The notes under the pieces were generated by a model, which was given only the letters and a program-made list of their open reading frames with translations, was not told the DNA's origin and searched no databases. Both the position numbers and the translations under genes were made by a program. Positions 36,228-39,256 of a stretch of DNA of 64,000 nt are shown here, piece by piece; the stretch's first letter is position 1, and each line of letters begins with the position of its first letter. Source of the stretch: Candidatus Magasanikiibacteriota bacterium (lineage in GTDB: Bacteria > Patescibacteriota > Patescibacteriia > Magasanikbacterales > GWA2-37-8); the NCBI GenBank assembly GCA_016182085.1, contig JACOYB010000004.1, positions 211,923 to 275,922 of the forward strand, written 5' to 3'.

Positions 36228-36240
36228 ACAAAACTATTTT

Positions 36241-36306
36241 GTCATGCCGAACTTGTTTCGGCATCCCGTTATTAGCAAGGAGATCCCGAAACAAGTTCGG
36301 GATGAC
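36241..36306. repeat. GTCATyCTGAAC-family palindromic element, copy H
   Basis: GTCATGCCGAACTTGTTTCGGCATCCCG...CCCGAAACAAGTTCGGGATGAC. Followed by the terminator AAAAGCGCTCCgaaaGGGGCGTTTTTT. Confidence 0.7.
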
Positions 36307-36402
36307 AGAAAAACAAAAGCGCTCCGAAAGGGGCGTTTTTTGTTTGTAAAATGTTAGAATACAGAGTAGAATTAATTTAACTATTTAAATCATTTATAAA
36401 TT

Positions 36403-36894
36403 ATGAGCAGCTATATAATTTCATTTTTTTCCTCATTTCCCCCAGAACTCGCCACTTTTCTTATTGGTATGACACCTGTTGGCGAAATTCGCCTGGCTTT
36501 ACCGGTGGCAATTTTGGGATACAAACTCCCGATTTGGGAGGCGTTTTTTTGGGGAGTAATGGGGAATATGGTTCCGGTAACTATAATTTTGTCTTTCGCT
36601 AAATATTTTCATTTATGGATTCACAAAAGATCCGGATGGTTTGCCTCGGCCTGGGTTAAATATCTGGATAGAGCCCAGCATAAATTTGCGGGGGATTATC
36701 AAAAATACGGATTAATCGGACTGATGATTTTTGTGGGCATCCCACTGCCTATGACCGGAGCGTGGACCGGCGCTTTGGCCGCTTTTGTTTTTGCTTTGCC
36801 TTTTGGCAAATCATGGTTTTCTATTTTAGCCGGCGTAATTATTTCCGGCATGGCTACATTGCTTATAACCGTTGGAGCGGGCAGGATATTTTGA
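36403..36894 (+). CDS. small membrane protein, putative small multidrug-export (COG2426-like) family
   Basis: Four TM segments; N-terminal GMTPVGEIRLALPVAILGY motif. Confidence 0.4.
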   Translation: MSSYIISFFSSFPPELATFLIGMTPVGEIRLALPVAILGYKLPIWEAFFWGVMGNMVPVTIILSFAKYFHLWIHKRSGWFASAWVKYLDRAQHKFAGDYQKYGLIGLMIFVGIPLPMTGAWTGALAAFVFALPFGKSWFSILAGVIISGMATLLITVGAGRIF

Positions 36895-36917
36895 GTTTCC
36901 ATTTTTGGCTTCTCACC

Positions 36918-36951
36918 CTATAAGGGGGAGGATATAGGAGGGGGTTTCGGA
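36918..36951 (+). repeat. 32-bp direct repeat (left copy) flanking the DUF559 gene
   Basis: ccctataagggggaggatataggagggggttt compared with 37476-37507 ccctataagggggaggacagaggagggggttt. Confidence 0.75.
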
Positions 36952-36958
36952 TATTATT

Positions 36959-37336
36959 ATGACCATAAAGAGAACATATCAAAACGAACCGACACTAAAG
37001 GATGTGAGGCGTTTCCTGCGCGCAGAAGGCACGTCCGCAGAAAAAATTTTATGGAAGTATATTCGCAAAAATCAATTAGGTTATAAATTTCGTAGGCAGT
37101 TTAGCATTGGAAATTTTGTGGCTGATTTTTACTGCCACGAGCTTAAATTAATTATTGAATTGGATGGGTGGACACACGATAGTTCTCAGACTAAAATTAA
37201 AGATTTGCGGAAACAACAATTTTTTGAAGGTAAGGGTTATACAGTAATTAGACTTACGAACGAAGAGATTTATGGAGATCCGGAAAAATTTATTGCTCGT
37301 ATTAAAGAGATTTGTGATAAATTATCAAAATACTAA
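36959..37336 (+). CDS. DUF559 (Vsr-like / restriction-endonuclease-like) endonuclease domain protein
   Basis: 125-aa protein with ...FVADFYCHELKLIIELDGWTHD...TVIRLTNEEI..., the DUF559 fold signature. Confidence 0.6.
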   Translation: MTIKRTYQNEPTLKDVRRFLRAEGTSAEKILWKYIRKNQLGYKFRRQFSIGNFVADFYCHELKLIIELDGWTHDSSQTKIKDLRKQQFFEGKGYTVIRLTNEEIYGDPEKFIARIKEICDKLSKY

Positions 37337-37475
37337 ACCCCACCCTTTATCCCTCCCCTTGTAGGGTAGGGAACGAACGAAACAAAGAATAATAACTATT
37401 CTCTTCACACACCTCTTTACTTATAAGGGAGGGAGCGAACAGGTAAGCGGCTGGAGTAAGTTTGTTGTAAGTCCT

Positions 37476-37507
37476 CCCCCTATAAGGGGGAGGACAGAGG
37501 AGGGGGT
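37476..37507 (+). repeat. 32-bp direct repeat (right copy), immediately 5' of prfB
   Basis: Contains the perfect hairpin CCTCCCCCTataAGGGGGAGG followed by AGGAGGGGG. Confidence 0.75.
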
Positions 37508-37521
37508 TTTGTGCTAATACT

Positions 37522-38598
37522 ATGTCCATAGATGATTTAAAACAATTACAATCTAAAATACAATCCACCAAAAAACTTCTTAACATAGAAAGTCTGCAAA
37601 AAAAGATGGAACAGTTGGCGGAAGAAATGAACGCGCCTGATTTTTGGAACAACCAAGAAAATGCGCAAGCGGTTAGCCAGGATTATCAGGATATAAAAAA
37701 AGAAATAGATAAGTTTGAAGATTTGGAAAAAAGAATAAATGACCTGCTAGAATTATCGCAATCGCAAGACGAATCCTTGGCTAGTGAAATAGAAGATCAA
37801 ACCAAAAAATTGCAAAAAGAATTTGATGATTATGAATTTTTGGTTTTGCTTTCGGGGCCGTATGATAAAAGTAACGCAATTATTAGTATTCACGCCGGCG
37901 CGGGTGGTACTGAAGCGCAAGATTGGGCCGAAATGTTGTTGCGCATGATTATGCGTTTTGCGGATAAGATGGGTTGGAAAACCAGAATTTTAGACGAATC
38001 TCGCGGTGCCGAAGCCGGTTATAAATCGGTCATGTTAGAAATAAAAGGACGGTATGCGTATGGTTATTTAAAATCCGAACACGGCGTGCATAGACTAGTG
38101 CGCATTTCTCCATTTGATGCCGAAAAAATGCGCCATACCTCTTTTGCGCTTATAGAAGTTTTGCCAGAGCTGGATGATAAAGTAAAAATTGAAATTGATC
38201 CAAAAGATTTGAGGATTGATACATTTATGTCCGGGGGCAAGGGCGGACAAAGTGTAAACACTACTTATTCGGCGGTGCGGATTGTGCATATTCCTACCGG
38301 CATTTCTGTTTCTTGCCAAAACGAACGGTCGCAGCAGCAAAACAAAGATATGGCCATGAAAATTTTACAATCAAAATTAAATATTTTAGAAGAAGAAAAG
38401 AAAGCCAAAGAACGCCAGGAAATGCGCGGAGAATACAAATCCGCCGAATGGGGCAACCAAATTCGTTCGTATGTGTTGCACCCATATCATTTGGTAAAAG
38501 ATAATAGATCCGAATACGAATCTGCCGATCCGGAATCAGTTTTAGAAGGTGAGCTACTGCCGCTTAGCGAAGCGTATTTAAAGTGGATAAAAAGCTAG
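37522..38598 (+). CDS. prfB: peptide chain release factor 2, encoded without programmed frameshift
   Basis: SPF tripeptide motif (RISPFDAEKMRHTSFA) and GGQ motif (SGGKGGQSVNTTYSAVRIVHIPTGI). Continuous 358-aa ORF. Confidence 0.9.
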   Translation: MSIDDLKQLQSKIQSTKKLLNIESLQKKMEQLAEEMNAPDFWNNQENAQAVSQDYQDIKKEIDKFEDLEKRINDLLELSQSQDESLASEIEDQTKKLQKEFDDYEFLVLLSGPYDKSNAIISIHAGAGGTEAQDWAEMLLRMIMRFADKMGWKTRILDESRGAEAGYKSVMLEIKGRYAYGYLKSEHGVHRLVRISPFDAEKMRHTSFALIEVLPELDDKVKIEIDPKDLRIDTFMSGGKGGQSVNTTYSAVRIVHIPTGISVSCQNERSQQQNKDMAMKILQSKLNILEEEKKAKERQEMRGEYKSAEWGNQIRSYVLHPYHLVKDNRSEYESADPESVLEGELLPLSEAYLKWIKS

Positions 38599-38599
38599 T

Positions 38600-39256
38600 A
38601 TGGAAGTTTTAAAAGAATGTGATTTAGCCAAAATAGCTGTTTCCTTATTTGAAGGTAAGACTATTGTGTTTCCCACAGAGACTTCTTATGGTTTGGGATG
38701 TGACGCAACTAATCAAGAAGCAGTAGATAAAATTTTTAGCATTAAAGACAGGGCAGATGATAAGCCGCTTCTTATTGTAGTGCCAAGCGTAGAGATGGCA
38801 AAAAAATATTTGGTATGGAATAATACTATAGAAAAATTAGCCAAGGCGTATTGGCCAGGCGCTTTAACAATTATTGGAAAATATAACGCACCCCCGGCCC
38901 CTCTTTATAGAGGGGAATCGACAATCCCTCCTAAAAAGGAGGGTGGGGAGGTGTTGGCTAGTGGTGTAGTCTCAAAAAATAATACTGTGGCCGTGCGTGT
39001 CAGCAAACATGATTTAGTAAAGTTTTTAAGTGAAAGTTTGGGTAAACCGCTCGTGGCAACTTCGGCCAATATCTCTGGTGCCGGGGAAGTGTATAGCGGC
39101 CGCGCTGCCAAAATTATGTTTGCAGAAAAAGAATACCAGCCGGATATTATTTTGGATTACGGAGAGTTGGAGCACCGTCCTCCCACAACCCTGGTTGATG
39201 CAAGTAGTGATACAATTAATATCATAAGACAAGGCCAAGTAGAAATAAACATCTAA
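38600..39256 (+). CDS. tsaC: L-threonylcarbamoyladenylate synthase TsaC/YrdC with in-frame mini-element
   Basis: YrdC fold motifs (VFPTETSYGLGCDA, KPLLI, ATSANISG). The element at 38898-38943 encodes PLYRGESTIPPKKEGG. Confidence 0.85.
   Translation: MEVLKECDLAKIAVSLFEGKTIVFPTETSYGLGCDATNQEAVDKIFSIKDRADDKPLLIVVPSVEMAKKYLVWNNTIEKLAKAYWPGALTIIGKYNAPPAPLYRGESTIPPKKEGGEVLASGVVSKNNTVAVRVSKHDLVKFLSESLGKPLVATSANISGAGEVYSGRAAKIMFAEKEYQPDIILDYGELEHRPPTTLVDASSDTINIIRQGQVEINI
38898..38943. repeat. 46-bp double-hairpin mini-element inside tsaC
   Basis: CCCCTCTttataGAGGGG aatcgacaat CCCTCCTaaaaaGGAGGG. Confidence 0.75.

Follow-up and report, generated by a model that had tools for sequence, protein, structure and literature searches.

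The 64-kb stretch of DNA analysed here (the window) comes from an uncultured groundwater bacterium and contains, between two genes read in the same direction, a small nuclease gene with structured flanks. To its left lies a gene for a small membrane protein of the Sm_multidrug_ex family (36403–36894, plus strand; PF06695, Pfam E 2e-32). To its right lies prfB (37522–38598, plus strand), the native right flank, which encodes release factor 2 with its PCRF and RF-1 domains in a single open reading frame (ORF) and no frameshift. The gene between them is intact, occupies 378 bp of the plus strand (36959–37336), and encodes a 125-aa DUF559 protein with the Vsr-type PD-(D/E)XK nuclease fold. An earlier reading of this DNA made without database searches (the sequence-only reading) had placed a 378-bp DUF559 gene between two repeat copies, and the match to PF04480 bears this out (104.5 bits against a cutoff of 20.6, E 3.6e-30, profile positions 4–108 of 109).

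DUF559 is among the most widespread bacterial domains without an assigned biological role. The protein encoded in the window matches PDB entry 3HRL (E 1.5e-15), and a profile of 30 homologs matches the catalytic domain of I-Bth0305I, 3R3P_A (E 2.2e-5, 27 bits); with the single DUF559 sequence as the query, there is no match to 3R3P at E 0.01. I-Bth0305I is itself a proven homing endonuclease (PMC3239194, PMC3424549). Residues E67, D69, and H73 (in the string IIELDGWTH), together with D56, are invariant across the 30 homologs and make up the predicted conserved active site of acidic and histidine residues. The N-terminal NUMOD/HTH DNA-binding region that is a feature of I-Bth0305I-type enzymes (PMC3239194) is absent from the 125-aa protein, in which Pfam detected nuclease-domain families only. 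Judged by a dN/dS of 0.07–0.20, the nuclease gene is under purifying selection. Its GC content is 0.34 against 0.40 in the flanks, and at all six loci examined the GC content of the DUF559 ORF is lower than that of the host. PADLOC returned only weak, generic PD-(D/E)XK matches for DUF559, and no Rfam family matched the interval 36700–37700 at E values up to 10. Among genes with flanking inverted repeats, DUF559 is reported to be enriched (odds ratio 14; PMC9881135); our literature search found nothing on DUF559 genes with hairpin or mirror ends, nor on such cassettes in Patescibacteria.

The gene is bracketed by a 32-mer, CCCTATAAGGGGGAGGANANAGGAGGGGGTTT, that occurs exactly twice in the 64-kb window (36916–36947 and 37478–37509). 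The copies are identical at 30 of 32 positions, a match obtained in none of 100 shuffles, and ungapped extension lengthens the repeat to 36 nt (36912–36947 versus 37474–37509, 33/36 identical). The ATG of prfB (37522) lies 12 nt past the end of the right copy. The direct repeat described in the sequence-only reading is thus real, albeit with coordinates 2–3 nt off, and the roughly 140 bp of hairpin DNA that it noted after the gene correspond to about 137 bp of hairpin-rich non-coding sequence (37337–37473). Folding yields a perfect 11-bp hairpin for the right copy (-13.2 kcal/mol, z -4.1) and a hairpin with two arm mismatches for the left copy (-5.4 kcal/mol, z -2.0).

Both copies belong to a 5′ end module that consists of a 9–10-bp G/C hairpin (hairpin A; YCTCCCCC-loop-GGGGGAGR) followed by a mirror tract (A-nnn-ARGAGGGGG-TTT). 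Its counterpart, the 3′ end module (AAACCCCACCC-nnnnn-CCCTCCCC-loop-GGGGAGGG), repeats the 5′ module in inverted orientation and extends over the stop codon of the ORF. A manual count gives 19 of 24 identical positions between the 3′ module and the reverse-complemented 5′ module, the reverse strand of the window's 3′ module is also matched by the 5′-module profile, and the reverse strand of the 5′ modules is matched by the 3′-module profile (25 bits at 37472–37510). The left repeat copy is the cassette's own 5′ module (36910–36949, plus strand; nhmmer with the 5′-module profile, 46 bits); it comprises a hairpin A whose arm is degraded (TCTCACCC/GGGGGAGG), followed by GGGGGAGGA-TAT-AGGAGGGGG-TTT as its purine mirror tract, and its position is conserved in L001, L005, L087, L089, and L220. 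The 3′ module (37334–37376, plus strand; nhmmer with the 3′-module profile, 50 bits) begins over the stop codon with TAA-ACCCCACCC, of which the latter part is the inner arm Cr, and continues with hairpin B (CCCTCCCC-TTGTA-GGGTAGGG). In homologs without the stop codon, this module is translated as the tail ..TPPxxPPLIGEGANG.

The remainder of the non-coding sequence is composite. A filler (37377–37440, plus strand) consists of an AT-rich hairpin at about 37386–37402 and a degenerate second 3′ module (CACACACCTCTTTAC-TTATA-AGGGAGGGAGCGAAC), which the 3′-module profile matches weakly (37420–37438, 11 bits); in a MAFFT alignment, the 3′ modules of L005, L085, and L171 align with this degenerate copy and not with the intact one. 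The filler may be what is left of an earlier or adjacent cassette or, less probably, a loop insertion into hairpin B, the similarity of positions 37360–37417 to the insertions in the loops of L005 and L085 being weak. The junction spacer that separates the 3′ module from the 5′ module after it (GCGAACAGGTAAGCGG...; 37437–37471, plus strand) aligns with GCGAACGGGTGAGTG..., found at the same position in L005 and at the first junction of L085. The right repeat copy is a solo 5′ module (37472–37512, plus strand; nhmmer, 55 bits) with a perfect hairpin A and mirror tract; it directly adjoins prfB, and neither an ORF nor a 3′ module belongs to it. In all, nhmmer profiles gave four module matches in the 64 kb, all at this one locus, and profile searches found no further end modules of either type elsewhere in the window.

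All syntenic loci share the neighbours groEL, Sm_multidrug_ex, prfB, sua5, and DUF4015, and their comparison shows that the Sm_multidrug_ex/prfB junction is polymorphic among relatives, being empty or occupied by an ORF of 140 aa (ORF140), by DUF559, or by DUF559 and an ORF of 142 aa (ORF142). The empty site is found in L230 and L231, in which the genes are separated by 21 nt without module or hairpin (TAG-TATTTAAAAAGAGTACGATAT-ATG); L230 is related to the window at 86% identity in PrfB and 95% in GroEL. In L226–L229, the junction is occupied by the different ORF140. L001–L004 contain a DUF559 gene that is 89% identical, with the left module alone and with prfB located 40 nt past the stop codon; L089 and L090 likewise have the left module alone (DUF559 60% identical), and L005 has both left and right modules. 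L085 has an array in which DUF559, between a 5′ and a 3′ module, is followed by ORF142 between the same two modules and then by a further 5′ module in front of prfB. Neither ORF140 nor ORF142 belongs to a Pfam family, and ORF142 has no PADLOC family. The right copy of the window is orthologous to the pre-prfB modules of L005 and L085 (conserved GGGGGTTTTGTrCTAAnAyTATG) and is absent from the empty site of L230 and from L001 and L089.

These junctions bear directly on the model put forward in the sequence-only reading, namely that a homing-type or site-specific insertion of DUF559 duplicated the hairpin-plus-AGGAGG leader of prfB as its target site. Near-identical direct copies do bracket the gene in the window, the right one abutting prfB, and the gene of L005 is bracketed likewise. 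The reading had proposed looking for relatives with a single repeat copy upstream of prfB; an empty site does exist, and it has zero copies. Because TAG, 21 nt, and ATG leave no trace of a module, the repeat does not appear to be a target-site or leader duplication. The cassettes of L001–L004 and L089/L090, which have the left copy only, also argue against direct duplication by insertion, as does the recurrence of the module in front of DUF559 at unrelated loci, where it is paired with an inverted 3′ copy. A role as the leader of prfB is also at odds with the spacing: AGGAGG lies 17–18 nt from the start codon of both DUF559 and prfB, in a genome that rarely uses Shine-Dalgarno sequences (among 38 long ORFs of the window, 22 have no such core within 25 nt, and in only about three is the spacing usable). 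The tract is spaced 5 nt from the start codon in L089 and L220, where it could act as a Shine-Dalgarno sequence. We regard the target-site model as highly improbable. As one part of the explanation that we come down in favour of below, the two copies are instead probably the end modules of a small cassette-type element and not duplicated host sequence.

The history of the window's own junction appears to involve a larger piece of DNA. Compared with L226, L227, and L230, the window is 97, 96, and 95% identical in GroEL and 90, 89, and 86% identical in PrfB, but only 49, 47, and 45% identical in Sm_multidrug_ex, which is 79–83% identical to that of the more distant L001 and L005. The identity of prfB to that of L226 (90%) extends over its whole length, and the spacer 5′ of the membrane-protein gene is L226-like until about position 36380. 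By this comparison, a block of approximately 1.1 kb (about 36390–37521), comprising the membrane-protein gene, the cassette, and the solo module, is foreign relative to the nearest relatives and resembles a distant clade. Between the window and L001, the excess of similarity is limited to the cassette: 4-fold sites are identical at 20 of 29 positions in DUF559, 47 of 97 in PrfB, and 17 of 60 in Sm_multidrug_ex; the dN ratio of DUF559 to PrfB ranges from 0.5 to 2.8 over pairs, and the adjacent ends of prfB and Sm_multidrug_ex show no matching similarity of the kind expected from hitch-hiking in the same comparison. Identity matrices had suggested that the trees of DUF559 and PrfB are incongruent, and this was rejected when the same split was obtained for PrfB in 803 of 1000 four-point bootstraps. 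Because the PrfB quartet topology is not incongruent with that of DUF559, which counts against a mobile cassette, the argument for exchange of the cassette by itself is one of rates and of few synonymous sites.

DUF559 genes with the same ends are found in at least six unrelated gene neighbourhoods, between co-directional housekeeping genes. These contexts are ABC transporter/GST (L087), RsmI/aaRS (L220), hypothetical gene/SOD (L219), Wzy/epimerase (L211), aaRS/SerRS (L115, with two full 55-nt palindromes in direct orientation), and DNA ligase (P0009, represented by the protein alone, the tail of which is the translated 3′ module). The flanking modules of about 40 nt are near-identical across unrelated neighbourhoods and across hosts with GC contents of 0.35 to 0.52. 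In addition, eleven units without an ORF occur on ten contigs (L100, L102, L103, L109, L116, L119, L135, L166 [two units], L181, and L197). These mini-units are 110–140 nt long, retain both ends with 5–45 nt between the modules, lie beside tRNA genes in unrelated intergenic regions, and fold into three hairpins (z -6.5 to -7.0). Those of L166 and L197 retain ..AAGCGATAA-ACCCC, which resembles the end of the L001 ORF (..AAGCGCTAA-ACCCC). Together with the empty and ORF140-occupied sites, the other contexts and the ORF-less forms lend support to the proposal that the gene might sit in a small mobile cassette, in the sense of a cassette-like, evolutionarily mobile unit at a variable site, and suggest a small mobile element not described before, as opposed to an ordinary gene.

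The same modules could also be understood as mRNA-stability or expression signals, or as terminator-like insulators, of small accessory genes that move only as parts of larger blocks, through ordinary homologous recombination with DNA that was taken up, with the ORF-less units being genes that decayed in place. Consistent with this explanation, the window copy arrived together with a neighbouring gene in a block of 1.1 kb, hairpins are located exactly at ORF boundaries, and ORF142, a different ORF, has the same modules; moreover, each of the 11 cassettes examined runs in the same direction as its two neighbours and has no promoter call, the promoter scan having made no call at the modules. The terminator scan, however, called none of the modules as an intrinsic terminator, and no T-run follows the hairpins (the sequence after hairpin B is AGCGAAC, and that after hairpin A is the purine tract). 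The explanation also leaves the mirror tract without a role, does not account for near-identical modules around DUF559 in hosts and neighbourhoods as different as those described earlier, and fails, with regard to in-place decay, for ORF-less units that have intact ends at unrelated sites near tRNA genes. We consider it unlikely, though a serious contender.

Metagenomes were scanned with a pattern built from the cassette's own family, and hence with a bias towards that family; of 120 loci matching the 5′ motif, only 5 contain a DUF559 gene, so most copies of the hairpin family are not adjacent to the gene. The sequence-only reading had also entertained the repeats as a generic hairpin family present at many unrelated loci. 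This holds for the hairpin-plus-mirror family in metagenomes but does not hold within the window, where the family is confined to a single locus. Among viral contigs, 20 loci match the 5′ pattern, with 0 matches to the 3′ pattern and no DUF559 gene at any of the 20; nearly all of them were set aside as an unrelated promoter-proximal mirror motif of a group of phages of about 50 kb, without the complementary arm.

The 115 of 120 loci without DUF559 give some weight to the idea that the modules are non-autonomous elements akin to REP, PATE, or MITE sequences, moved by a trans-acting enzyme such as an HUH/RAYT or IS200/IS605 transposase acting on single-stranded hairpins, with DUF559 and ORF142 as passengers or with DUF559 as a domesticated partner like RAYT. 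Arrays and tandem duplications of the motif in L161, L219, and L129 would fit such movement, as would insertions of a second kind (69–80 nt) inside hairpin loops of L005 and L085 and the subterminal position of the hairpins, which is typical of single-strand transposition. This idea is opposed by the register of the gene: the start and stop of the ORF lie at a fixed distance from the modules (intermodule gap 382–392 nt at seven loci), which would not result from random capture, and the 3′ module overlaps the stop codon. Furthermore, no HUH gene is present at any examined locus (most loci being short), and the family is not abundant in the window. Movement by a trans-acting enzyme is, in our judgement, improbable.

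On balance, we favour a mobile or exchangeable cassette with module ends, in an explanation that covers both the layout of the locus and a homing-like spread. The cassette would be transcribed by read-through from the upstream gene. The DUF559 enzyme may nick or cut structured end modules or ORF-less units, and repair after the cut would copy the ORF in, such that spread would be nuclease-assisted, recombination-dependent, and homing-like. The right copy, a solo 5′ module, may be left over from a tandem layout like that of L085 (DUF559 cassette, ORF142 cassette, solo module, prfB), and the most recent transfer at the window locus was presumably the exchange of a larger block through recombination. 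Several observations weigh against this explanation: the cassette contains no transposase or recombinase, the family is found at one locus only in the window, 115 of the 120 metagenome motif loci lack DUF559, and replacement of the 1.1-kb block is explicable by ordinary recombination without any cassette-specific machinery. We know of no case in which a PD-(D/E)XK nuclease moves a cassette by itself. No consistent direct repeat indicative of target-site duplication was found outside hairpins A and B of the short units and cassettes, for which the element ends are approximate.

The cassette shares traits with several known systems and differs from each of them. EDxHD/Vsr-like homing endonucleases (I-Bth0305I, 3R3P; phage Hef-type) have the same catalytic fold with conserved E, D, and H, and their genes are similarly small, selfish-looking, and AT-rich, with patchy spread and presence/absence at a fixed site. 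The DUF559 protein, in contrast, is only 125 aa long and lacks the NUMOD/HTH region, its gene is intergenic in a bacterial chromosome and not part of an intron, intein, or phage, and the cassette has inverted hairpin end modules and ORF-less derivatives, neither of which we know of for homing endonuclease genes. Terminal inverted repeat (TIR) transposons and MITEs resemble the cassette in their imperfect inverted ends (about 40 nt here), a gene-carrying form, and short, two-ended deleted forms at unrelated sites. The cassette differs in that its sole ORF is DUF559, with no transposase of the DDE, serine, or tyrosine class, each end in turn consists of a hairpin and a mirror repeat, and there is one locus in 64 kb. 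REP/REPIN-RAYT and IS200/IS605-PATE systems likewise consist of short, hairpin-centred G/C palindromes around one nuclease-type gene or without a gene; here, however, the gene encodes a PF04480 PD-(D/E)XK nuclease and not an HUH Y1 transposase, it is placed in precise register between the modules, and these are not highly iterated in the 64-kb window.

Integron cassettes (attC) and Acinetobacter pdif modules are comparable as promoterless single ORFs with imperfect palindromes, in one orientation at a fixed site, dependent on upstream read-through and varying in content between relatives (as in the L085 array). The array described here has no adjacent integrase gene or attI in any syntenic locus, its modules are unlike attC or dif, and each unit has a module at both ends. 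In the minimal mobile elements of Neisseria, variable genes between conserved flanks are exchanged by homologous recombination. The conserved housekeeping flanks, alternative occupants, and block replacement at the window site are similar; the cassette differs in having structured ends and in recurring at unrelated loci, neither of which is known to us for the Neisseria elements.

Two counts point to a constraint on the mirror symmetry of the ends. The free purine of the hairpin arm recurs as the same base in the downstream tract in 84 of 86 distinct copies with a hairpin, and the opposite-arm base pairs with it as C-G (49 copies) or T-A (21 copies); at the unconstrained position by which the mirror is extended, 81 of 85 copies have A. 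In hairpin A, 90% of cells are paired, compared with 62–71% when the arms are slid, and compensatory change is seen in one pair only (CG 13, UA 7). The inner arms (Cl:Cr) show no convincing compensatory covariation in paired modules judged by eye. It is possible, if doubtful, that the DUF559 subfamily is the autonomous representative of a class of mobile cassettes not yet described in prokaryotes. Its ends would then be hairpin-plus-mirror modules (Y-R-R at the 5′ end and Y-Y-R at the 3′ end) in place of simple inverted repeats; they could form an intramolecular triplex (H-DNA) that the Vsr-fold nuclease would recognise to start recombination-dependent copying, and the ORF-less 110–140-nt units would be non-autonomous derivatives or targets. 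Should the mirror-repeat ends form triplexes, they would stand out as unusual among the structures by which mobile elements are recognised.

For the very small genomes of the candidate phyla radiation, descriptions of mobile elements are, to our knowledge, few, and the cassette points to a form of gene-cassette turnover in them. It also offers a testable hypothesis for DUF559 cassette genes, namely that they are selfish homing-type nuclease genes. For gene annotators, miscalled starts and stops and spurious Pro/Gly-rich tails are to be expected on such genes.

The DNA, from a member of Candidatus Magasanikbacteria (Patescibacteria/CPR), contains a 32-mer twice, at 36916–36947 and 37478–37509 (30/32 positions identical), in a match that lengthens to 36 nt (33/36 identical) and has no counterpart in shuffled sequence. 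Between the copies lies a 378-bp ORF (36959–37336) with, as predicted, a clear match to DUF559 (PF04480, E 3.6e-30), followed by a hairpin-rich spacer of ~137 nt; the right copy ends 12 nt upstream of prfB. The direct repeat bracketing a DUF559 gene, described in the sequence-only reading, is thus borne out. The prfB gene (37522–38598) is one unbroken ORF without a +1 frameshift site. Across the 38 long ORFs of the whole window, upstream regions are AT-rich and most genes have nothing resembling a Shine-Dalgarno site in the 25 nt before the start.

Each repeat copy (5' module) consists of a G/C hairpin, YCTCCCCC-TATAA-GGGGGAGR (hairpin A), and a purine tract mirroring the 3' arm of the hairpin, the whole reading GGGGGAGGA-nnn-AGGAGGGGG-TTT. 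A 3' module, TAA-ACCCCACCC-TTTAT-CCCTCCCC-TTGTA-GGGTAGGG, with hairpin B, begins right at the DUF559 stop codon. This 3' module is an inverted copy of the 5' module: its sequence equals the reverse complement of the latter at 19/24 positions (manual count), and nhmmer profiles of the two modules each also match the reverse strand of the other. The DUF559 gene is therefore bracketed by ~40-nt inverted ends with one hairpin each. Homologs without a stop codon translate the 3' module into a ..TPPxxPPLIGEGANG tail, which shows DNA-level conservation of the module throughout the subfamily.

The cassette with both modules also lies between the membrane-protein gene Sm_multidrug_ex (36403–36894 in the window) and prfB in four further lineages, with DUF559 identities of 89% (loci L001–L004), 76% (L005), 80% (L085) and 60% (L089/L090). 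L005 and L085 have an extra right-hand 5' module, which L001–L004 and L089/L090 lack; the L085 array reads [5' module]DUF559[3' module] - [5' module]ORF142[3' module] - [5' module]prfB. The same end modules also bracket DUF559 genes in unrelated neighbourhoods: ABC transporter/GST (L087), RsmI/aaRS (L220), a hypothetical gene/SOD (L219, modules tandemly duplicated), Wzy/epimerase (L211, variant hairpin), aaRS/SerRS (L115, with two complete 55-nt palindromes in direct orientation) and, judged by the protein tail only, a DNA-ligase context (P0009). The modules are 382–392 nt apart in seven loci, and 11/11 cassettes examined are co-directional with both neighbours. In a rival reading, which that uniform orientation favours and these scattered neighbourhoods speak against, the modules would be RNA-level signals, and movement would be by general recombination only. 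In an unrelated organism (L161), tandem hairpin-plus-mirror arrays with a period of ~76 nt lie on either side of a DUF559 gene (60–530 and 1000–1240).

The nearest relatives of the window by PrfB and GroEL have no DUF559 gene at this site. In L230/L231, the interval from the membrane-protein gene to prfB is TAG + 21 nt + ATG, with no module, which rules out the right copy as an ancestral prfB leader; L226 and L227–L229 have an ORF142-family ORF of 140 aa at the site, in L227 with a degenerate 5' module. The site is therefore polymorphic. The empty sites in L230/L231 do not have the single repeat copy before prfB that was sought, and the proposal that the repeats are a duplicated prfB leader or target fails on these loci and on the missing extra copy in L001–L004 and L089/L090. 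The repeats are instead the element's own end modules; the small mobile cassette proposed earlier stands in modified form, without the duplicated target, as one of a family whose ends are inverted and structured, whose cargo varies and which includes tandem arrays and miniatures. We found no published description of a DUF559 cassette with such hairpin modules. The 140–142-aa ORF family (L085 645–1073; L226 2577–2999; L227 2566–2988), which shares the DUF559 site and has the motif LDGLHRL, has no match in Pfam, nor has its L085 member, ORF142, in PADLOC.

Within the spacer, the intact 3' module (37334–37376) is followed by a short hairpin rich in A/T and a second, degenerate 3' module (~37395–37440), a junction spacer (GCGAACAGGTAAGCGG..) that aligns with those of L005 and L085, and, last before prfB, the solo 5' module. 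The simplest reading is an L085- or L005-like arrangement in which the 3' module of an older or neighbouring cassette was left behind. L005 (2335–2403) and L085 (511–590) have 69–80-nt insertions exactly in the hairpin A loop of a 5' module, each with its own internal AT-rich hairpin, which may be a further small element targeting hairpin loops; a weakly supported alternative to the leftover module is that the extra spacer sequence is a related insertion in the loop of hairpin B.

Identities between the window and L226/L227/L230 are uneven: 97/96/95% for GroEL, 90/89/86% for PrfB, 87/78/72% for DUF4015 and 49/47/45% for Sm_multidrug_ex, the last being 79–83% identical to L001/L005. Ahead of the membrane-protein gene, the spacer resembles that of L226 until ~36380. 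Hence ~36390–37521, a stretch that takes in membrane-protein gene, cassette and solo module, is foreign relative to the nearest relatives and was apparently exchanged as a block, and block replacement was probably the latest event at this locus. Sm_multidrug_ex of the window, L226/L227/L230 and L089 falls into at least three very divergent types (43–50% mutual identity), a split seen among genomes with 95–97% GroEL identity, which makes the gene itself part of a hypervariable groEL–prfB island. An inverted repeat with 34-nt arms (GTCATGCCGAACTTGTTTCGGCATCC.. / ..GGGATGACAGAA) in the groEL/membrane-protein gene spacer (36237–36310) is an insertion relative to the otherwise near-identical L226 spacer and appears to be another, unrelated MITE-like element; at that position L227 carries a different insertion.

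The window and L001 resemble each other more in the DUF559 ORF than in the genes on either side (dS 0.86 vs 1.8): identical 4-fold sites number 20/29 in the ORF, 47/97 in PrfB and 17/60 in the membrane-protein gene. No excess similarity was seen in the cassette-side ends of prfB or the membrane-protein gene. This confinement to the ORF suggests, on few sites, an exchange limited to the cassette. L001 and L085 have the opposite pattern (PrfB dN 0.067, DUF559 dN 0.186). A stronger claim, that DUF559 and PrfB trees conflict, is not supported: a four-point bootstrap revealed no topological conflict. In 6/6 loci examined, the DUF559 ORF exceeds its host in AT content (e.g. GC 0.38 vs 0.52 in L089), and it is under purifying selection (dN/dS 0.07–0.20).

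The closest solved structure to the window protein is the DUF559 protein 3HRL, and a profile from 30 homologs, with E67, D69 and H73 invariant, reaches the catalytic domain of I-Bth0305I (3R3P, E 2e-5) and also PvuRts1I. In a published survey of PD-(D/E)XK proteins, Vsr, DUF559 and the homing endonuclease I-Bth0305I fall into one group (PMC3424549; PMC3239194); unlike the I-Bth0305I family, the window protein has no N-terminal DNA-binding region. In an independent survey, DUF559 was enriched among genes flanked by inverted repeats (odds ratio 14; PMC9881135), in line with the end modules described above. We favour movement by nuclease-assisted, recombination-dependent copying, a mechanism we infer.

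A search of metagenomes for the 5' motif gave at least 120 loci. The hairpin-plus-mirror motif is spread over organisms of very different GC, mostly without DUF559 (present at 5/120 loci among the matches listed); in a second rival reading, which this spread favours, the modules would be REP/PATE-like elements moved in trans. The sequence-only reading had named a generic hairpin family at many unrelated loci as counting against it: the motif is indeed widespread in metagenomes, but in the window it occurs at this locus only. In CPR-like contigs (GC 0.41–0.45, several from the aquifer of L005), 5' and 3' modules also stand back to back, 5–45 nt apart, without an ORF (eleven units on ten contigs among the matches listed), at unrelated intergenic sites, some adjoining tRNA genes. 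These units fold into three hairpins (A, an inner stem of the purine and pyrimidine tracts, and B; z-scores −6.5 and −7.0), and two appear to retain the extreme end of the DUF559 ORF, a few bases long. Cassette and ORF-less units are a classic pair of gene-carrying element and internally deleted miniatures.

Of 86 distinct hairpin-bearing copies among the matches listed, 84 have the same base as both free purines, the opposite arm base giving C-G pairing in 49 and T-A in 21, and the unconstrained base extending the mirror is A in 81/85. The layout of hairpin plus mirror purine strand is that of an intramolecular purine-motif triplex, with the corresponding pyrimidine layout in the 3' module. 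The equality could alternatively stem from common descent, with only two sequence types involved; a formal count of pairs gave only one compensatory pair in the hairpin. Phage contigs of ~50 kb and GC ~0.31 (L232–L251, viral; L157, L175, L187, L198) carry a perfect mirror repeat, AGGGGGAGAAAGAAAGAGGGGG, directly downstream of a TTGACA..TATTATA promoter-like site and without complementary arm or DUF559; here a very similar purine mirror motif is put to a different use.

The Sua5/YrdC gene (38600–39256) has an in-frame insertion of ~18 aa (NAPPAPLYRGESTIPPKKEGGEV) at 38893–38960, coded by two short G/C hairpins (CCCCTCTTTATAGAGGGG; CCCTCCTAAAAAGGAGGG) plus TGGGGAGG and absent from Sua5 of the closest relatives (L226, L227, L230, L005). 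It resembles the in-frame palindromic insertions known in Rickettsia; in L001, this loop of Sua5 carries another, longer palindromic insertion.
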